Origin: an uncultured Chitinophagaceae bacterium
Lineage (GTDB): Bacteria; Bacteroidota; Bacteroidia; Chitinophagales; CAIOSU01
DNA length: 64,000 nt
NCBI GenBank assembly: GCA_964543705.1
Contig: CAZIZP010000005.1
Coordinates: forward strand, 1,612 to 65,611
Reading direction: 5' to 3'
The number at the start of each line of letters is the position of its first letter. The first letter of the stretch is position 1. Below are positions 3,001-48,568 of this stretch, piece after piece. The notes below the pieces were generated by a model, which saw nothing but the letters and a program-made list of their open reading frames with translations, had not been told where the DNA came from and searched no databases. The position numbers were made by a program, and so were the translations under genes.

Positions 3001-5168
3001 GTAACTTCAGAATAGGCATTTTAGAAATTGACAATAGCAACGGGGTACAATTTGCATTTAATACAAATGCACTTATAGATGAAAAATTAGTATTAAAAAC
3101 TGGTAATTTAAACACCAATAATGGAACTGTTACACTGAAGTCGTCTGCTACCCGCACAGCCTATATTGACGATTTCACTTCAGGATATAACGGTACTATT
3201 ACCACCAACAACAACTTAACCATAGAGCGATATATACCGGTAGTAGCCAACCCGCTTTCGGCAACACCCTTTGCGTACTTGAATCGCTATTTTTATATTG
3301 GCTCTATTACTAACAATATTACTACAGCTTCTAAATGGAATGGGCAATTTAGCTTAAATGCTAATGCTGGCGCCAACAACAGCAATACTGTTACTCCAAA
3401 AACTGATTGCAGCAGAGAAGCGTTGGCACAAGGCAGTCCATTCAGTAACTTATTTGCTTATGATGAAAGCAGAGTACAAGGTGATTGCTACTTAAGAGGG
3501 TGGATACCATTAAATGCTTCTGCTACAATAGAAAGAGGCAAAGGCTATGCAGCACGTATTAACGACCCCGCAATTATTAACTCAAACAGATTATTAAGTG
3601 AAACCGGAAATTACAGTAAACTTCCTGTTACTTTCAACAATCTTAGTATAAGCGCCAATAATAATTCAGCATCATTATACTCCGGACAGTTTGGCACCAA
3701 AGGTCACCATATTATTTCCAACCCATTCTGGGCACCAATAGACTGGAGAGTTGTAGCCACTAATAATGCCTCCGTTTATGGTACTGCTTATAAGTTTAAC
3801 CCTGCAACAGGTAACTTTTTACCATTAAACAATTCAGGAGTAGTGCCTGTGGAAATTGGTACTAATGAAGCAATCATCATATTACCTTTAGATGCTAACC
3901 AAAGCAGCTATAATGTAACCATTCCTGCTACTGCAAGAGTAAACAGCACCAGCAATAGTTTACTTAGACAACAACAGCTTTATCAGTATAAGTTAGAAGT
4001 AAAAGTACAATCGGCAGATAATGAATCGGATAAGGCCTATTTAATATTTGACAATAGCTTTACTGAAACCCATGATAATGGTTTTGATGCTAAAAAAATG
4101 TTTAGCAGCATAGGCGTGCCAAGTATTTACACTAAAGATTTGAATAATGAAAGAAGCAGTATTTTGGCTTTGCCTGAAAATACCCAGCAAACCACTATTC
4201 CTTTAGGTGTAGCTATTGAATACAATGGTAATCATACCTTAACTTTTGAAGGCGTAGAAGATTTTCCGAATACTTCTATTATTTGGTTAGAAGATTTACA
4301 AACAGGAACCATACAGTATTTGAGAAATAATAATACGTATAGCTTCACTGCCAACAAAACAGATAATGCCGATAGGTTCTTATTACACTTTGCGCCTGAG
4401 TTGCTAATTGCTTCCACAGATGCAAACTGCGATAATGAAAACGGAAATATTAACATTACCGAAAGAGGTGGTTTGGAATGGACTTATACTTTAACCGATG
4501 AAAACAGCAATGTGATTACAAACAGCCTAATCAACGGCAGCCAACAAACTATTGGTCAGTTACCAAGTGGTACTTATACATTACAATTAACCAATACTAT
4601 CAGTGGTTATCAAACGGTTGAAGCCGTAACGATAAATCAGGTGGCAACAGTAACAGCCGCTATTAGCATACCAAACGCAACAGTTAATGTAGGCGATATG
4701 GTAACAGTTGATATTAGCAACACCACCGGAGCAACAAATACCAGTGTAGATATGGGCGATGGTACTGTTTACAACAACGAAAGCATCATAAACCACAGTT
4801 ATACTATCGGTGGTAATTATACCATTACAGTAAATGCCAATAACGATAACTGTGCCGATGCTGCAACGCTAAAAGTTGAAGTAATGGATATTGCTACAAG
4901 TATTGCCAATAATAATCAAGACCTTTCGATAGAAGTATATGCTAGCCAAAATAATTTATACATTACCCAACACTTGCAAGAAGGCTCAGTAGATACAAAA
5001 GTAGAAGTGTATAATATGTTGGGGCAAATAGTTGCTTCTGAAACTATTAATGCTCAATACCAGCAGGCATACAGCATTAGTATGAATGATATTGCTAAAG
5101 GCACTTATATAGCCCGCGTAATTGCCAATGGAAAAACTTCATCGAAGCGAATAATTATAAGCGAATAA
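3..5168 (+). CDS. Large secreted cell-surface protein, 5'-partial (Calx-beta-like segment, PKD-like domain, T9SS type-A C-terminal sorting domain)
   Basis: The frame of the listed 135..5168 ORF stays open back to base 3, so the gene starts upstream of the window. The extra N-terminal stretch TFPTTITILNGQTTGTLTFNIADDNVAESTETATFTISNPSAG reads like a Calx-beta repeat. A PKD-like segment is present (DMGDGTVYN...HSYTIGGNYTITV). The C-terminus VEVYNMLGQIV...GTYIARVIANGKTSSKRIIISE is a typical Por/T9SS tail. Confidence 0.75.
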   Translation, partial: TFPTTITILNGQTTGTLTFNIADDNVAESTETATFTISNPSAGIVLGTPLTRNLTITNNPLTYIELTALNVPATEDFAGMGSNGSAPTPTGFGIQDGNSTTIASAVTQQASSGTPTAGGAYNWGQSTTERALGLMFSSGYNNKSILAAVKNSTGGTGSIFEIKFNYEQYRRNSATQTFKLQYSTSLTTGWVDVPGGNFTNIASGGSLHNFTSLIASEYIDIQFTPAATVANNQVVYFRWILDGSTNSSGVGIDDVSIALVTVSCSTPTTQISNTNFSGVTQNAIDFNFTVGDGSNRVVYINSTNSFTAPTDGAALPSVNTTWANSGQQLIYNGSGNSASVSGLSAGTTYYFRVYEYNCTGSNTKFLNTTTTYNQATNIAASTASVVQAVSNSEANTISSLVNGTIVSNSNGVQVWRFRLYDGNGISNDADNMPTIYTGWTIRASADNTVPNWSTAIADRKFFLGTSTIPITGGGLTNPNNIPFPISSPFITVPDDGFVDVYMRITLANPLPVGSDGQKFGFSLVPADITVASSATSSQLGSFSATSNGTKNIIDVLATLKFIDAPTNVVINNNFTITVSAVDANGNIDQNQTGAITLSQFTGSGTFSGGSTQNLVGGSYTWTGLTYDEVGTFQVRAQGGAFAPVFATINATNDPFQLFDDFNRANNNIVGIPSSGGTTLWSETETGDGSRVRISNNRLILSNCNSDGSNSGNGFEQVAFDMTPKYETLFENANGTMNWKFNMRSTRSGPSGFSITNTYGIAAVLGCDEIDYQSTSADGYAVIIGNTGAPNPVKLIRFTNGLRSNSNITDVAVSSYTGETGYLSINVSYNPCNNEWSLWVRNDGSDFADPNAGSFGSAFTGVDNTHTSKDLKYSGFAFQHGASCSEIVSIDNFYIPNAGTLVAGTTVWTGALNNLWHVSDNWYCGVLPNSTINAVIPNVTNAPEVIDLNPGNVKDVIISNNAEITIFGELNVYGNFTNSGGIVTGEGTLSFKGSLPQSINGNFRIGILEIDNSNGVQFAFNTNALIDEKLVLKTGNLNTNNGTVTLKSSATRTAYIDDFTSGYNGTITTNNNLTIERYIPVVANPLSATPFAYLNRYFYIGSITNNITTASKWNGQFSLNANAGANNSNTVTPKTDCSREALAQGSPFSNLFAYDESRVQGDCYLRGWIPLNASATIERGKGYAARINDPAIINSNRLLSETGNYSKLPVTFNNLSISANNNSASLYSGQFGTKGHHIISNPFWAPIDWRVVATNNASVYGTAYKFNPATGNFLPLNNSGVVPVEIGTNEAIIILPLDANQSSYNVTIPATARVNSTSNSLLRQQQLYQYKLEVKVQSADNESDKAYLIFDNSFTETHDNGFDAKKMFSSIGVPSIYTKDLNNERSSILALPENTQQTTIPLGVAIEYNGNHTLTFEGVEDFPNTSIIWLEDLQTGTIQYLRNNNTYSFTANKTDNADRFLLHFAPELLIASTDANCDNENGNINITERGGLEWTYTLTDENSNVITNSLINGSQQTIGQLPSGTYTLQLTNTISGYQTVEAVTINQVATVTAAISIPNATVNVGDMVTVDISNTTGATNTSVDMGDGTVYNNESIINHSYTIGGNYTITVNANNDNCADAATLKVEVMDIATSIANNNQDLSIEVYASQNNLYITQHLQEGSVDTKVEVYNMLGQIVASETINAQYQQAYSISMNDIAKGTYIARVIANGKTSSKRIIISE

Positions 5169-20798: not shown

Positions 20799-23700
20799 AT
20801 GAGCCAGAAGATATATCCTGAAGTAAAGCAACTCAATCTGCCCGAAATAGATAAGCAGATATTACAGTTTTGGAATGCAAACAACACCTTTGAACAAAGC
20901 ATCGAAACCCGAAAAGATGCCGAGCCTTTTGTGTTTTTTGAAGGACCACCTAGTGCAAACGGAATGCCGGGTATTCACCACGTAATGAGCCGCACACTTA
21001 AAGATTTGTTTTGCCGCTACCAGACTTTGAAAGGTAAAAAGGTAGAGCGCAAGGGTGGTTGGGATACACATGGTTTGCCTATAGAACTGGCAGTAGAAAA
21101 AAGATTAGGCATTAATAAAGAAGATATAGGCGTAAAAATTTCAGTTGCCGATTATAATGCTGAATGCCGCAAAGAGGTTTTAAAGTATAAAGAAAAGTGG
21201 GATGAACTCACCCGTAAAATGGGCTATTGGGTGGACTTGGAAAACCCTTACATCACCTACGAAAACGAATACATCGAAACCCTTTGGTGGATTTTAAAAC
21301 AGTTTTACAATAAAGGGCTGCTATACAAAGGCTACACCATTCAGCCCTATTCGCCCGCAGCCGGCACAGGTCTTAGTTCTCATGAATTGAACTTACCAGG
21401 ATGCTATAGAAATGTGAAGGATACCAGTGCAACGGTGCAGTTTAAAATTAGCCCCACCCAAACCCTCCCCTTCAGGGAGGGCTTAGAAGTGCTACAAAAT
21501 ATCGTTACGAACCCAAACTCCCCCTCTGAAGGAGGGGGCAGGGGGGAGGCATTTTTCCTTGCTTGGACCACCACTCCTTGGACTTTACCCTCTAACTGCG
21601 CATTAGCTGTTGGGGCAAACATTGAATATGTATCGGTTAAAACTTTTAACCCATACACTTTCTTGCCTGTTAATGTTATTCTGGCTAAAGATTTAATTCT
21701 GAGAAATCTGAATTATGAACAATTAGAAAAATGGGTAATTGGTAATTTGTTGGATGGAGAGATTTTAAGTTTATCTTCTGACAAGGGTTTTGACGGGAAA
21801 ATCAACTTATTTGGAAAAGATTTATTTGTTGAAATAAAGAATAATGAAGTTGATTTAAAATCCTTAAATAAAATTTCTGAAGTTGCAATTAAAAATAAAC
21901 TTGAAGAAGTTTTACTGATTTGTCTTAATGAGAAAGAAGAAATTATAGAAATTGAAGGTGTAAAAATTGAGATTGTTTCTATAAATAAATTACTGAATTG
22001 TAATTCAAAAAATCAACCACTTAATGAGTTAGTAAAAAAGAATTTAATTGTGTTCAAAGGCAGCGACCTAGCAGGCATCCGCTACGAACAACTACTACCT
22101 TTTGTTCAGCCTGAAAGTGGAGACAATTTCAAAGTAGTGATGGGAGATTTTGTTTCTACTGAAGATGGAACAGGTATTGTGCATATCGCACCAAGTTTTG
22201 GTGCAGATGATATGCGCGTAGGCAAGCAAAATGGTGTGGGCGCACTAACATTAGTAGATAAGCGTGGTAAATTTTTACCCGAAGTGAAAGACGATATTTT
22301 TTTGTATGGAGAAGAATTTGTGAAAGAAGCTTATTTAACCGAAGCAGAAAAACAAACCGAATTTGAAAAGCAGAAAAAAATTCTGGAAGCCAACGGCAAA
22401 ATAAAAGAACTGAAAAGCTACCTGAGCGTTGACGACCGCATTGTGCTGAAATTGCAGGAAGAAAACAAGCTCTTCAAAAAAGAAAAATACGAACACAACT
22501 ACCCACATTGCTGGCGCACCGATAAACCAATTTTATACTATCCGTTAGATAGCTGGTTTATTAAAACTACCGCCATTAAAGAGCGCATGGTTGAGTTAAA
22601 TAAAACTATTAACTGGAAACCCGAAAGCACCGGCACAGGGCGTTTTGGTAATTGGTTAGAAAACTTGGTAGATTGGAATTTATCGCGCTCAAGATATTGG
22701 GGAACACCTTTACCTATTTGGAGAACCGAAGATGGCACTGAAGAAATTTGCATTGGCTCGGTTGAAGAGCTCAATCAGGAAATAGAAAAATCTAAACAAG
22801 CGGGCTTTATGGAAGCCTCCCCTGTAGGGGGAGGTTTTGAGGGGGCTATAGATTTACATAAGCCCTTCGTTGATGAAATTATTTTGGTTTCTCCTACAGG
22901 CAAAAAAATGATGCGTGAAGCAGATTTAATTGATGTGTGGTTCGACAGTGGCGCCATGCCTTATGCACAGTGGCATTATCCATTCGAGAATAAAGAAGTA
23001 TTTGAAAAGAGTTTCCCTGCCGATTTCATTTCAGAAGGCGTTGACCAAACCCGTGGTTGGTTCTTCACGCTTCATGCCATTGGCACTATGTTAATGGGTT
23101 CGGTAGCATTTAAAAATGTTGTGTCTAACGGTTTGGTGTTAGATAAAAATGGCAACAAAATGAGCAAGCGATTGGGTAATACCGTTGAGCCATTTGAAAC
23201 CATTGCCAAATATGGCGCTGATGCTACCCGTTGGTATATGATTACCAATGCGCAACCGTGGGATAATTTGAAGTTTGATATTAACGGAATTGGCGAAGTG
23301 CAACGTAAGTTTTTCGGCACGTTGTTCAATACTTATTCCTTCTTTTCGTTGTATGCCAATATCGATGGCTTTCAGTTGAACGAGCAAAAGATTATTTCGG
23401 TTAAAAACCGCCCCGAAATTGACCGATGGATCATTTCAAAACTCAATACTTTAATAAAAGAAGTAGATGGCTACTATGCCGATTATGAGCCTACCAAAGC
23501 AGGTCGTGCCGTGCAAGATTTTGTTGATGAGCATTTGAGCAATTGGTATGTGCGCTTGTGTCGCAGGCGTTTTTGGAAAGGCGAAATGAACGAAGACAAA
23601 CAAGCCGCATATGAAACGTTGTTTGAGTGTTTAATTGCTATTTCCCAGTTGATGAGTCCAATAGCACCATTCTTTGCAGATTGGTTGTATCAAAACCTGA

Positions 23701-24546: not shown

Positions 24547-25527
24547 ATGAGCGCAAAAAAAACTGTTGCAAAAGCGAAGCCGGCAGCTAAAAAAGCAGCC
24601 AAGGCACCAGCTAAAAAGTTAGTAGCAAAAAAGGCTCCTGCCAAAAAAGTAGCGGCTAAAAAAGCGGCCCCAAAAAAGGTGGCAAAATCGGGGTCTTCGG
24701 TTGCCAAAACACTTAAAAACATTGTAAGCAAAGTAGCTTCTGCTTTAAAAACAAAGCCTGTGGCTAAGAAAAAAGCAAAAACAGTTGCTAAGCCTGTGGC
24801 AAAAAAAGTTGTTAAGGCCACAAAACCAGCTCCTAAAAAAGTTACAGTTAAAAAACCGGTGGCTAATGCAAAACCAGCCCCAAAGAAAATAGCTAAAGTA
24901 ATAAAGCCGGCAGCTAAAAAGCTAGTTGCAAAGGCACCTGCTAAAAAAGTGGTAGCCGCAAAGCCCACACCTAAAAAAGTTGTAAAACCGGCAGCAAAAG
25001 CACCAGTAAAAAAAGTAGCGGTAGCTGCTAAGCCTGAACCCAAGCCTGTTTATAAAAAGGTTGAACCAAAAGCAAAACCTGCTGTTTCAAAAACAGTAAC
25101 TGTAAATAAACCTATTGTGAAGAACGATACTATGAAGACAAAAGGAAAGCCTGAAAAAACCAGCTATTCAGATGCTGAGTTGGAAGAGTTCAGAGCATTA
25201 ATTAACAAAAAAATTGCTGCTGCAAGAGAAGAATTAAAATACCTGCAAGAGCAAATAAATCGCAATTCATCTATTGGCGATACTGATGCTGATACTACTT
25301 TCAGCGGCTTAGAGGATGGCACTGCTTCCATGGAGCGCGAATATTTAAACCAAATGGCAGCTCGTCAAATCAGCTATATTGGTCACTTAGAAAATGCCTT
25401 AGTAAGAATTCAGAATAAAACTTACGGCATTTGCAGAGAAACCGGAAAGTTGATTCCTAAAGAACGTCTTAGAGCAGTACCTCATGCAACATTAAGCATT
25501 GAAGCCAAATTGGCTAAAGACCACTAA
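24547..25527 (+). CDS. DksA/TraR-family protein with histone-H1-like Lys/Ala/Pro-rich N-terminal extension
   Basis: The C-terminal 125 aa is DksA/TraR-like: coiled coil EELKYLQEQI followed by YGICRETGKLIPKERLRAVPHATLSIEAK. Residues 1 to about 190 are AKKxxAKK / PAPKK low-complexity repeats. Confidence 0.8.
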   Translation: MSAKKTVAKAKPAAKKAAKAPAKKLVAKKAPAKKVAAKKAAPKKVAKSGSSVAKTLKNIVSKVASALKTKPVAKKKAKTVAKPVAKKVVKATKPAPKKVTVKKPVANAKPAPKKIAKVIKPAAKKLVAKAPAKKVVAAKPTPKKVVKPAAKAPVKKVAVAAKPEPKPVYKKVEPKAKPAVSKTVTVNKPIVKNDTMKTKGKPEKTSYSDAELEEFRALINKKIAAAREELKYLQEQINRNSSIGDTDADTTFSGLEDGTASMEREYLNQMAARQISYIGHLENALVRIQNKTYGICRETGKLIPKERLRAVPHATLSIEAKLAKDH

Positions 25528-45502: not shown

Positions 45503-48500
45503 TTATTCCACTACAATTCTTCTTGTGAAGGTATTGCTTTCGGTTTTTACTTGAATCATGTAAACACCGGTTGAAATGTTGGCTGGTAAATTTACTAATG
45601 CTGAAGTTGTATTATGATTAGCATTTGCCAATTCAGCACCTGCTAAATCATATACTACTGTGTTTATAATGTTTTCATTTGCAGTTACTGAAACCGCATT
45701 TGAATTAACCGGATTAGGATAAATGCTTATAGCATTATTCAACACTAAATCAGTAGTATTCACTTGTACACAAGCAGGCAATGCTACTAGCGCGCCACCT
45801 GTAGGCAATGCAGCGAATAATCCAAACGCTTCACCATTGCTGTTGTTAGCAGGGTTTAAGAAACCTGATGCCAAAACGATTAAAGCATTTCCGTCTTGAT
45901 TTAATGAAGCAAGAGGAGCCTGATAGCAAGCTACAGTTGTAGTACCTGTTTCGTCTCTAACTTGTACTTCGTAATCATTCGTAGGCAATTCCAAATAGCC
46001 TTCAAATTCTCCGTAGCTCAAATCATTTACAATAGTGCCGGCACCTACTAATGTTTCTACAACATCTACTGTAGGCGCATCTGTTGCACCATGAAACACT
46101 AACACATCTGTATTGCCTGATGAAGCAGCAGCTTCTTGTGCAGGATTGAATACATATAAATCAAATGGTGTGGCTGGGCTGTAGCCTGTTGGGCTTACAA
46201 TACCGTTGGCAACGATTACGTATGTTTCATTTCTGTCTAATGTGTAATTGAAATTAGCAATGGCATCAGCAACTGAAGTACTGTTGGCTGGAGCTATTGA
46301 TACTTTATTATTAACGTCTGAATTCAAATCTATGAATGGTGTAGCCGTTCTGAATGCGAAATTGTCTATTTCTAATACATCATTAATATAAACATCAACC
46401 TCAGCAGCAGCAGCATCAGCACTGTTATGAATAACCTGTACTCTTGCTGTTGAATTTGGTAATGGTACTAATGCACCACCTGTAGGCAATGCAGCAAACA
46501 AACCAAAAGCAGGGCCATCGCTGTTGTTAGCAGGGTTTAAAAAACCTGAAGCTAACACTACTGCAGCAGCATCTTGTAAGCCTAATGTGGCTAATGGTGC
46601 TTCATATGCAGCTACAGTTACTGAACCTGTTTCGTCTTGCACCTGTAAAGCATAATCAGCAGTTGCTAATGGTAAATAACCTGCAAACGCTCCATAGCTT
46701 AAATCATCTACAACTGTACCTGCTCCAGCTTCAACTTCAGCTACATCTACTGTAGGCGCATCTGTTGCACCATGAAACACTAACACATCTGTATTGCCTG
46801 ATGAAGCAGCAGCTTCTTGTGCAGGATTGAATACATATAAATCAAATGGTGTGGCTGGGCTGTAGCCTGTTGGGCTTACAATACCGTTGGCAACGATTAC
46901 GTATGTTTCATTTCTGTCTAATGTGTAATTGAAATTAGCAATGGCATCAGCAACTGAAGTACTGTTGGCTGGAGCTATTGATACTTTATTATTAACGTCT
47001 GAATTCAAATCTATGAATGGTGTAGCCGTTCTGAATGCGAAATTGTCTATTTCTAATACATCATTAATATAAACATCAACCTCAGCAGCAGCAGCATCAG
47101 CACTGTTATGAATAACCTGTACTCTTGCTGTTGAATTTGGTAATGGTACTAATGCACCACCTGTAGGTAATGCTACAAATAAACCAAAAGCAGGACCATC
47201 GCTGTTGTTAGCAGGGTTTAAAAAACCTGAAGCTAACACTACACCTGCACCACCTTGTAAACCTAGAGAAGCCAAAGGAGCTTCATAAGCAGCTACCACA
47301 ACAGTACCGGTTTCATCTCTTACTTGCAATGCATAATCAGCATTAATTAAAGGCAGGTATCCCTGAAATTCTCCGTAAGATATGTCATCAACAACTGTAC
47401 CTGCGCCTGCTGCAACCTCAACTGCATCTACAGTTGGTGCATCAGTTGCGCCATGAAACACTAACAAATCTGTATTTGCTGTTCCGCCAGCGGCAGCTTC
47501 TCTACCGGTTGTGTAAACATATAAATCAAATGGTGTAGCAGGGCTATAACCTGAAGGACTTACTATACCATTGGCAACAATAATGTAAGTTTCTTCATCA
47601 GCTAATACATAATCAAATGTTGCAATAGCGTCACCTACGCTTGTACTGGTTGAAGGAGCAATAGCCACTTCAATATCGATTAAAGATGGTAAATCAGTAA
47701 AAGCAGAAGCTGTTCTGAAAGCAAAATCGTCAAACACCAATGTGCCATTAATATATACATCTACTTCAGCAGCAGCAGCATCGGCACTGTTATGAATAAC
47801 TTGTACTCTCGCAGCACCATTTGTTGCAGCTACAGACGGCAACTCTAACAATGCACCACCTGTTGGCAACGCAGCATACAGACCAAAAGCTGGTCCGTTA
47901 CTATTATTAGCCGGGTTTAAGAACCCTGAAGCCACAACAACTAATGCCGCCCCTCCGGCATTTAATGTAGCCAAAGGCGCACTGTAAGAAGCTACTGTGG
48001 CCAATGTGTTTTCAGTTCTTACATCTAAAGTAAAATCTGCAGTTGGTAAATCTAAGTAAGTTGTAAACTCGTTGTATGATAAATCATCAATAATTAGTCC
48101 TGCACCCACGCCACGCTCTACAACATCTACAGTTGGAGCATCAGTTGCGCCATGAAAAACCAAAACTGCTGTTTCATTAATATTGTTAGAAGTTTCTCTT
48201 CCAAGAGCATACACATATATATCGAAAGGAGAAGCAGGTGTGTATCCCGAACCACTTACAATACCATTAGCGATAGCTACATATGTTTCACCGTCAGCAA
48301 GTGTTACTGTTTTATTGAAAACAGAAGATGATAACGAAGTGTTTGGCGGAGTTAAATCAATTGTTAGTGGCACTCCTGAAGGCACATCTGTAAATGCAGT
48401 TGCCGTTCTGAAAGCGACATCTTCCAAAAATAAGTTTCCGTTAACGTAAACGTCAACCGTTGCTGCTGCGGCATCTGCAGAGTTGTGAATAATCTGCAAC

Positions 48501-48568
48501 CTTGCCGTTTGCGCAAAAGCACTCAACCCAATAAAGACTGAGACCGCAAGTGTTAGAATTTTTTTCAT
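45503..48568 (-). CDS. DUF4397-repeat surface protein with T9SS C-terminal domain
   Basis: Signal peptide ending AFAQ. Four modules of about 227 aa, each starting AR(L/V)Q(I/V)IHNSADAAAA.VDVY(V/I)N. C-terminus IYPNPVNSNAV...GVYMIQVKTESNTFTRRIVVE. Confidence 0.8.
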   Translation of the reverse strand: MKKILTLAVSVFIGLSAFAQTARLQIIHNSADAAAATVDVYVNGNLFLEDVAFRTATAFTDVPSGVPLTIDLTPPNTSLSSSVFNKTVTLADGETYVAIANGIVSGSGYTPASPFDIYVYALGRETSNNINETAVLVFHGATDAPTVDVVERGVGAGLIIDDLSYNEFTTYLDLPTADFTLDVRTENTLATVASYSAPLATLNAGGAALVVVASGFLNPANNSNGPAFGLYAALPTGGALLELPSVAATNGAARVQVIHNSADAAAAEVDVYINGTLVFDDFAFRTASAFTDLPSLIDIEVAIAPSTSTSVGDAIATFDYVLADEETYIIVANGIVSPSGYSPATPFDLYVYTTGREAAAGGTANTDLLVFHGATDAPTVDAVEVAAGAGTVVDDISYGEFQGYLPLINADYALQVRDETGTVVVAAYEAPLASLGLQGGAGVVLASGFLNPANNSDGPAFGLFVALPTGGALVPLPNSTARVQVIHNSADAAAAEVDVYINDVLEIDNFAFRTATPFIDLNSDVNNKVSIAPANSTSVADAIANFNYTLDRNETYVIVANGIVSPTGYSPATPFDLYVFNPAQEAAASSGNTDVLVFHGATDAPTVDVAEVEAGAGTVVDDLSYGAFAGYLPLATADYALQVQDETGSVTVAAYEAPLATLGLQDAAAVVLASGFLNPANNSDGPAFGLFAALPTGGALVPLPNSTARVQVIHNSADAAAAEVDVYINDVLEIDNFAFRTATPFIDLNSDVNNKVSIAPANSTSVADAIANFNYTLDRNETYVIVANGIVSPTGYSPATPFDLYVFNPAQEAAASSGNTDVLVFHGATDAPTVDVVETLVGAGTIVNDLSYGEFEGYLELPTNDYEVQVRDETGTTTVACYQAPLASLNQDGNALIVLASGFLNPANNSNGEAFGLFAALPTGGALVALPACVQVNTTDLVLNNAISIYPNPVNSNAVSVTANENIINTVVYDLAGAELANANHNTTSALVNLPANISTGVYMIQVKTESNTFTRRIVVE
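46062..47167. repeat. Intragenic tandem duplication: two 425-bp perfectly identical cores, 681 bp apart
   Basis: 46062-46486 is identical base for base to 46743-47167. The flanks continue at roughly 90% identity for about another 75 bp. Confidence 0.9.

Follow-up and report, generated by a model that had tools for sequence, protein, structure and literature searches.

The element and its host gene

The stretch of DNA analysed here, 64,000 nt from an uncultured Chitinophagaceae bacterium (hereafter the window), carries ileS, the gene of a type-2 isoleucyl-tRNA synthetase (IleRS), and within ileS lies the element with which this report deals, a short in-frame block built of two G/C hairpins (table 1). 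The ileS product matches the Pfam families tRNA-synt_1 (1.6e-119), Anticodon_1 and DUF5915, and 8000 IleRS homologues were retrieved for it. An earlier note had described the block as a double hairpin of approximately 100 bp lying in frame directly before the editing-site motif TTTPWT, and had read it as a small, palindromic selfish element that an essential synthetase accommodates in one of its loops. The two 7-bp hairpins, CCCTCCC-CTTCA-GGGAGGG (21463-21481) and CCCCCTC-TGAAG-GAGGGGG (21520-21538), lie inside the ileS open reading frame (ORF) exactly as noted, and the translation VQFKI[SPTQTLPFREGLEVLQNIVTNPNSPSEGGGRGEA]FFLAWTTTPWT is that quoted. Other details required adjustment. The block is in frame, but its exact size is 102 bp, i.e. 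34 whole codons in phase 0; it is close to TTTPWT, but five residues (FFLAW) stand in between; and the two loops are exact reverse complements, whereas the stems differ (CCCTCCC versus CCCCCTC), so that the hairpins are variant copies of one inverted-repeat module rather than strict inverted copies of one unit.

The module was defined from an alignment of 13 ends (left ends and reverse-complemented right ends) taken from the window and from related loci (L001, L003-L006), all of which fall in register. It spans approximately 35 nt and reads A-GCCCC(N)CC(Y)-AAA-(Y)CCTCCCC-loop-GGGAGG(R)-CTT, that is, an outer C block, an inner C arm, a loop of 3-6 nt and a G arm. The right end of the element is the reverse complement of the left one, hence the complementarity of the loops CTTCA and TGAAG. 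The boundaries of the element were set by this alignment and by the terminal A...T bases, an A before the left end and a T after the right end being found in 42 of 48 miniature copies (minis) from other loci. As judged from the aligned ends, the element thus bears terminal inverted repeats (TIRs), as miniature inverted-repeat transposable elements (MITEs) do; it is also small and devoid of coding capacity of its own, with no Pfam match and no similarity to DUF559.

The 5′ TIR of the window fits the family pattern exactly, where no chance match is expected, and is recovered with E = 2.4e-9 by an nhmmer profile built from 125 copies of other genomes; ends in L006, L016 and Mucilaginibacter are almost identical to it. 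The 3′ TIR is a variant form. The outer 20 nt of its reverse complement, GCCTCCCCCCTGCCCCCTCC, are identical (20/20) to the 5′ end of a cassette in L006, in which an ORF encoding a DUF559 domain lies between such ends, and the reverse complement of the L006 3′ end matches the window 5′ end. By chance, 0.03 occurrences of the first hairpin would be expected per window with up to two mismatches, and none of the 20-nt end motif even with three. An exceptional thermodynamic stability was also considered and is unsupported (DNA dG of -19.6 kcal/mol, z = -1.25 versus dinucleotide shuffles); the significance of the hairpin block rests on its sequence conservation, not on thermodynamics.

Only three G/C hairpins of at least 6 bp occur in the window (37% GC), all of them inside ileS. 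The third belongs to a solo 3′ inverted-repeat module, 1.3 kb downstream of the 102-bp element, which encodes (E)ASPVGGGFEGA. This module has every feature of a right end, is in register with the ends of the family and resembles the 3′ end of a cassette in a leucyl-tRNA synthetase (LeuRS) gene (L004); its nhmmer E-value over the hairpin part is 0.029. It is shared with the closely related ileS of L003 (protein P0002) and absent from that of P0003. The same spot holds larger unrelated inserts in P0006 and P0008.

Table 1. Features of ileS and of the element in the window, with the loci of cassettes at two recurrent sites of other genomes.
Feature	Position or loci	Strand	Details
ileS, type-2 IleRS, 1247 aa	20799..24542	+	ATG 20799, stop 24542; from ORF listing and translation
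Whole enzyme-less element	21450..21551	+	102 bp; codons 218-251, phase 0; encodes SPTQTLPFREGLEVLQNIVTNPNSPSEGGGRGEA
5′ TIR	21450..21484	+	A-GCCCCACCC-AAA-CCCTCCC(21463-21469)-CTTCA-GGGAGGG(21475-21481)-CTT
AT-rich spacer, 30 nt	21485..21514	+	encodes roughly EVLQNIVTNP; read from sequence
3′ TIR, variant form	21515..21551	+	AAACT-CCCCCTC(21520-21526)-TGAAG-GAGGGGG(21532-21538)-CA-GGGGGGAGGC-A
Solo 3′ inverted-repeat module, second ileS site	22813..22847	+	AAG-CCTCCCC(from 22816)-TGTAG-GGGGAGG(to 22834)-TTTT-GAGGGGGCT; from hairpin scan
LeuRS cassettes	L147, L148, L154, L156, L159, L161, L165, L167, L168, L176, L177, L184, L194, L204; also L004		
ispF-DUF559 loci, rumen metagenomes	L127-L130, L135, L136, L140-L145, L150, L157, L162		

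A dispersed family in Bacteroidota

GTDB representative genomes (one per species) were scanned with the 20-nt motif GCCCCNCCYAAAYCCTCCCC, which returned at least 120 stretches; the statements of this section refer to the matches listed. The family TIR, AGCCCCNCCYAAAYCCTCCCC-loop-GGGAGGRCTT, is scattered across genomes of Bacteroidota, to which at least 105 of the 120 stretches belong, including Mucilaginibacter, Pedobacter, Chitinophagales, Prolixibacteraceae, Bacteroidaceae and Flavobacteriaceae. Several of these genomes have more than one copy (e.g. Mucilaginibacter galii and Mucilaginibacter sp. L196). Because a compositional match would favour high-GC phyla, the bias towards Bacteroidota speaks against mere composition. 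Within the window, copies are found in ileS only. The view of the earlier note, that of a small selfish palindromic element tolerated in frame, is borne out, as the ends are TIRs conserved at many unrelated loci of the phylum, and the membership of the window copy in this dispersed inverted-repeat family is well supported by the sequence comparisons.

Forty-eight of the matches are double-hairpin minis, 71-209 bp long, that have their left and right ends in common and enclose mutually unrelated AT-rich spacers. Most copies are intergenic, chiefly as double-hairpin minis of 70-150 bp; 19 of 126 (15%) lie in frame inside long ORFs, and their hosts include IleRS at the same position as in the window (L115), LeuRS, alanyl-tRNA synthetase (AlaRS), UvrA, DNA polymerase I (PolA), methylmalonyl-CoA mutase, MetH and acetyl-CoA synthetase. 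In-frame copies are carried by cultured isolates, namely Pedobacter sp. Leaf194 (LeuRS, with DUF559), Arenibacter sp. P308M17 (LeuRS) and Pedobacter sp. UYP30 (AlaRS); metagenome binning can therefore not have produced such copies, and the host enzymes must remain functional.

The end motif was also met in a few genomes outside Bacteroidota, in Paenibacillus (L033, L074), in Sphingopyxis or Novosphingopyxis (L061, L086, L126) and in Ignavibacteria (L058, L097), one of these cases being a MetH with DUF559 in an Ignavibacterium metagenome-assembled genome. This distribution of sequence matches suggests a spread of the family across phyla.

Endonuclease cassettes at recurrent sites

A DUF559 ORF is present in 14 of the 120 motif loci listed, mostly adjoining the motif, and the same end modules flank the DUF559 cassettes of L006, L083, L070, L098 and L112, which provides the autonomous partner expected of a MITE. 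To remove the selection bias of a motif-based sample, 80 metagenomic loci were chosen by similarity of the DUF559 core protein alone. Of these loci, 43 have perfect C-first G/C hairpins upstream of the ORF, 46 have them downstream and 32 have them on both sides. Such hairpins reach 2.72/kb in the DUF559 flanks against 0.12/kb elsewhere, a 22-fold enrichment, and the upstream and downstream loops are mutual reverse complements. In half of the set (40 of 80), the frame runs for at least 100 codons on each side into the host gene. Full-length members of the family consist of a DUF559 ORF placed between ends of this design and lie in frame in essential genes beside conserved motifs.

The sites concerned are recurrent:

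— In LeuRS, the cassettes lie 4-6 residues before the editing motif TTRPET/TTRPDT (14 of the 80 DUF559 loci). Structurally, it corresponds to the IleRS site that precedes TTTPWT, so that two paralogous synthetases are struck at the same place.

— In RecG, they lie between the DEQH and TATPIPRT motifs (nine loci), and in MetH just before the cobalamin-binding (B12) motif DxHDxG.

— In IleRS, cassettes occupy two sites; at the second, before FPADFIAEGVDQTRGW, a full cassette is present in P0033, L024, L117, L164, L190 and L203.

— In approximately 14 loci, DUF559 is fused in frame to the N-terminus (the 5′ end of the gene) of IspF and flanked on either side by CCCCTCCC/GGGAGGGG hairpins.

Homing-like behaviour is also seen in the endonuclease sequences, which group according to insertion site: for 50 of 54, the nearest neighbour occupies the same site. 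Within multi-member site groups, identity is 57-73%, compared with 51% between groups, and two groups of two members each reach 80-100%.

Several loci call for separate comment. Frameshifts in the L004 LeuRS and L005 acetyl-CoA synthetase cassettes were considered as cases of gene splitting; neighbouring parts of these genes are also fragmented (the assemblies being long-read) and one shift lies in an A7 run, so that they were attributed to assembly error and left unused. L172 displays, upstream of position 3001, five tandem hairpins spaced every 33 nt, the outermost being CCTCCCC-TTGAG-GGGGAGG and the other four CTCCCC-TTGAG-GGGGAG; they are in frame as KGLSPLEGEAR repeats just before the DUF559 domain, in what looks like an amplification of the end module within the ORF. 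Finally, P0145, a free-standing DUF559 protein of 131 aa, is labelled ‘ATP-dependent DNA helicase RecG’ by its source, probably through annotation transfer from cassette-bearing RecG genes.

Turnover of the ileS site among relatives

That the block is a lineage-specific indel, which the earlier note had suggested testing, is supported by an alignment of 120 orthologues, in which the site (hereafter site 1) is hypervariable, with 5-154 residues between the flanking strands. Many of the site-1 segments, located between ..VQFKI and xFFLAW.., read as hairpin-coded peptides (LSKGEG..., ...VLSFGEDLGE, SLSFGEGRGEA). Some distant orthologues do carry related ends at the site (e.g. P0060, 63% identity), but the lengths differ (23-154 aa), so that the outcome which the earlier note would have taken as a refutation, a homologous segment of equal length in distant Bacteroidota, was not obtained.

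The states of site 1 can be followed from one relative to another. P0002, the product of a 95%-identical ileS (L003, 3404-3505), has the same mini as the window. P0003, encoded by a 94%-identical ileS (L001; two independent assemblies and samples), has at the identical position a 154-residue insert with a DUF559 core and hairpin ends of the same design; the full cassette is also present in P0241, a near-identical allele of P0003, and another full DUF559 copy occupies the position in a distant metagenomic ileS (L132). In P0005 (L207), a decayed homologue of the window right end is found at the same ileS position. In P0060 (L208), a short mini shares the left junction of the window element, CAGTTTAAAATT|AGCCCCACCCAAACCCTCCC, and an intact homologue of the window right end is present, while L115 has a solo end. 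Nothing is recognisable in P0016, nor in P0007 except GGTGAGGC, which resembles the outermost block, and orthologues at 75-89% identity are without the segment. Since close relatives show the mini, a full cassette, a decayed end or nothing, site 1 has thus been repeatedly occupied, degraded and re-occupied. A single site of a conserved gene that is recurrently filled, with empty alleles in close relatives, is what characterizes homing genes, and LeuRS, RecG and MetH offer the same picture.

The alleles of P0241 and P0003, compared as proteins, are 95% identical and differ mostly in inserted patches. Hairpin-coded patches occur at two further ileS sites, AQW[GLTPALSKGEGESSVKIGRQPDGTVSFPFGEGRDGA]SFPADF and LLPF[KANEFVELNGKNLPFGEAGGV]VITGDF, and one patch overwrites the conserved HYPFEN motif.

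The comparison between the window and P0002 (L003) bears on the question of whether the insert serves its host, either as an adaptive extension of the editing domain or as an mRNA structure tuning ileS translation or stability, in which case its likeness to a repeat would be fortuitous. Both hairpins have kept their stems between the two loci, while the loops and the spacer have changed, and model confidence is moderate over the initial part of the insert, two observations that such a role could explain. However, 4 of the 34 insert residues differ, against 5% in the remaining protein, the segment is missing in the orthologues of 75-89% identity, its length at the site varies from 5 to 154 residues, and the same ends recur in many unrelated genes and intergenic regions across orders. 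A host-selected feature is therefore very improbable. The substitutions fit a passenger peptide, with constraint, if any, at the level of the nucleic acid.

The insert in the protein

In the solved type-2 IleRS 8c8w, approximately 5 residues join the two strands at the insertion site. The mapping onto a structure that had been suggested thus places the insert at a short turn, and the AlphaFold model of residues 150-560 draws it as an excursion between the two strands, with pLDDT (a model-confidence score) of approximately 81-83 over its first part, which includes a short helix, and of approximately 50 over SPSEGGG. The element takes up the whole turn rather than being added within it; since it fills the entire space between the strands, the original turn residues are gone. 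Element and ileS would be transcribed and translated together, the 34-residue excursion replacing a short beta-hairpin turn of the editing domain just before the strand that leads to TTTPWT. The peptide would then stay in the mature enzyme, to the function of which it would contribute nothing.

A removal after transcription or translation, by an intein-like, intron-like or translational-bypass element whose twin hairpins mark the segment, would avoid this conclusion. The twin hairpins, together with an outer closing stem, can indeed join the flanks in a single strand, and GC-rich insertions bypassed in translation are known from yeast mitochondria. However, the junctions in the window (I|SPTQ...GEA|F) include no Cys, Ser or Thr on the downstream side and no His-Asn at the end of the insert, i.e. 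no splice-junction residues, and no Hint or other intein domain is present. Nor was any intron or other RNA family recognized: Rfam gave no meaningful match to this part of the window, and none of six Mucilaginibacter loci had a match at gathering score. Moreover, genic copies are always open and in frame, whereas the lengths of the minis, mostly intergenic, are evenly spread modulo 3 (13/15/20 for the 48 minis among the matches listed), as would be expected if translation were required of genic copies. Removal is, in our view, extremely improbable.

Other parts of the window deserve mention. At 21696-22058 (IleRS residues approx. 300-420, in the editing domain), approximately 120 residues replace a segment of approximately 35 residues of the 95%-identical P0002, and a homologous long version exists only in the distant P0067 (58% identical). 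AT-rich and free of hairpins, this segment receives low model confidence; it gives the impression of another kind of sub-module, either recombined or mobile. The next ORF after ileS (24547-25527) is rich in Lys, Ala and Pro arranged in short AKKAPAKK-like repeats; its equivalents in relatives are 321-330 aa long, with no Pfam match. Further on (45777-48516), four tandem repeats of approximately 681-699 bp (D1-D4), 65-100% identical, probably encode a repeated-domain protein.

Origin of the window copy

The 154-residue insert of P0003 matches Pfam DUF559 (4.5e-31) and, more weakly, MTES_1575 and Vsr (5e-4), with no other Pfam match; the window mini has none. Compared with the PDB, the insert retrieves 3hrl (3e-17) and, weakly, 3r3p, the catalytic domain of the intron-encoded homing endonuclease I-Bth0305I (0.02; PMC3239194). 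The DUF559 domain of the cassettes is predicted to be a Vsr-like PD-(D/E)XK endonuclease, and a nuclease domain of a family with known homing members is thus found in the full-length relatives but not in the window copy, which retains just two ends and a 30-nt spacer.

It is likely, in our judgement, that 21450-21551 is a non-autonomous copy of a family of TIR-flanked mobile elements of Bacteroidota, from which the endonuclease has been lost. More tentatively, as a proposal that falls somewhat short of probable, the family would represent an undescribed class of elements: a DUF559 cassette bounded by hairpin inverted repeats that homes to codons beside conserved motifs, is not spliced, persists inside the host protein as one of its domains and is reduced by decay to pairs of hairpins. 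IleRS, LeuRS, AlaRS, RecG, MetH, UvrA, PolA and acetyl-CoA synthetase may be its target genes.

The mechanism of mobility that we infer for the cassette runs as follows. The full cassette would spread in a homing-like manner, its endonuclease, produced as a domain within the host protein, cutting unoccupied alleles near the codons of a conserved motif, whereupon recombinational repair would copy the cassette into the cut allele. After fixation, the endonuclease ORF would decay or be deleted, and the pair of inverted repeats would remain. The ends, composed of C and G runs, would be open in most frames (one variant having a stop in one frame) and would encode linkers of Pro, Gly, Glu and Leu, so that insertions into coding sequences could be survived. 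They may also be the sites at which the nuclease acts in cis, which would account for the many intergenic minis of other genera.

Several points weigh against this scenario. Pattern, hairpin and profile searches and tblastn found no further copy of the ends and no endonuclease gene in the window outside ileS, and as the window copies are confined to ileS, the window offers no evidence of activity or dispersal in the source genome. (Of the tblastn matches considered as candidate DUF559 genes, some were parts of host genes, namely ileS itself and, at 38.7 kb, the gene of an AMP-binding enzyme; the others were weak and fell within a histidine kinase at 44.5 kb. The candidates were therefore rejected.) No target-site duplication of 2-6 nt was detected at any boundary offset in the 48 minis, and none is visible at the window copy, contrary to what is expected of MITEs. 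The hairpin sequences of the full cassette at the same site (P0003, L001) differ from those of the window, being of the same design but more diverged. An in-place deletion of a full cassette finds no support in the spacer, which has no significant similarity to DUF559; its translation EVLQNI resembles NEEVLxNI of the DUF559 C-terminus by eye, but when aligned locally with 80 DUF559 tails, 42-158 of 500 shuffles equalled the score, and this candidate remnant was rejected. The clustering of endonucleases by site could also reflect vertical inheritance. Lastly, homing requires no inverted repeats, and the many intergenic minis, whose spacers are unrelated, are better explained by transposition or a REP-like route (PMC3733652).

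Some of these points lend themselves to another history, in which the element arrived as a mini, a MITE- or REPIN-like unit transposed into ileS without an ORF and mobilized in trans by the DUF559 nuclease or another enzyme. Dozens of double-hairpin minis with the same ends do lie at unrelated, mostly intergenic loci of Mucilaginibacter and other genera, in-frame minis without an ORF exist in methylmalonyl-CoA mutase, UvrA and PolA, the spacer shows no significant DUF559 similarity, and a related mini with the same 5′ junction is found in the 63%-identical ileS of L208. However, no other copy is present in the window or in 16 kb of a sister contig, the identical site is filled by full cassettes in a 94%-identical gene, the mini spacers are mutually unrelated, unlike those of classical MITE families, and the missing target-site duplication argues against this route as well. 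We consider an arrival as a mini unlikely, and retain the loss of the endonuclease from a TIR-flanked element as the preferred reading. The window copy is itself an inert remnant, valuable as a lead to the family.

Relation to known elements

The comparison with known systems involves the following groups:

— Rickettsia palindromic elements are palindromic repeats found in frame in genes (PMC3733652, PMC3184786). Like the element described here, they are short, sit in functional and often essential genes and are translated as extra peptide segments, but they are restricted to Rickettsia, have no associated enzyme known and do not consist of two C-run/G-run modules; the likeness was drawn from their description.

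— Repetitive extragenic palindromes (REPs), REPINs and their RAYT genes, including REPtrons and TIRtrons (PMC3733652), share G/C hairpin modules that often form inverted pairs and far outnumber the enzyme gene, an enzyme gene flanked by inverted modules, and occasional copies within uvrA and synthetase genes. Indeed, in Proteobacteria and Opitutus, in-frame REPs have been reported from uvrA and from genes of tRNA synthetases, and in REPtrons hairpin repeats flank a presumed mobilizing gene (PMC3733652). However, the enzyme is here a PD-(D/E)XK nuclease of the DUF559 type and not an HUH tyrosine transposase, the ends (AGCCCC...GGGGCT) have no GTAG/CGTC tag, GTAG occurring only within some loops, and the enzyme-carrying unit itself lies in frame in host genes at recurrent sites.

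— Inteins and mini-inteins (PMC2677866) resemble the cassettes in their in-frame position at conserved motifs of essential proteins, in an endonuclease expressed via the host gene, in their site-specific lineages and in enzyme-less derivatives at the same site. They differ in that the cassettes have neither a Hint domain nor junction residues, are apparently retained in the protein and, unlike inteins, possess DNA inverted repeats.

— Vsr-like (EDxHD) homing endonucleases such as I-Bth0305I (PMC3239194, PMC2677866) have a related catalytic fold (3r3p and Pfam Vsr matches, see above) and belong to invasive elements targeting conserved genes. Known enzymes reside in group I introns or inteins or are free-standing. 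The similarity is weak, and the DUF559 subgroup is not known to have any activity.

— GC clusters and double-hairpin elements of fungal mitochondria likewise are G/C-rich double hairpins of an AT-rich genome, sometimes within coding regions. They are organellar, have no endonuclease ORF between the hairpins and are unrelated in sequence.

What is apparently undescribed is the combination of a DUF559 cassette with hairpin inverted repeats, its in-frame position without any splicing apparatus and the existence of enzyme-less derivatives. A full-text literature search, which included papers on DUF559, found no description of this family; its coverage being incomplete, an earlier description is possible.

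If this reading is true, the family would represent a third way, after introns and inteins, in which a selfish element based on an endonuclease can live within an essential gene: it merely stays in the protein, at a permissive turn beside a conserved motif. It would account for a common nuisance in the annotation of Bacteroidota, namely the unexplained Pro/Gly-rich inserts and ‘endonuclease domain’ calls in synthetases, RecG, MetH and other housekeeping proteins, and the insertions would mark natural permissive sites in these enzymes. The cassettes would further provide a family of small nucleases, whose target preferences may vary with the insertion site, and their hairpin ends could serve as an inexpensive marker with which to trace, from sequence, how core genes recombine and are exchanged horizontally.

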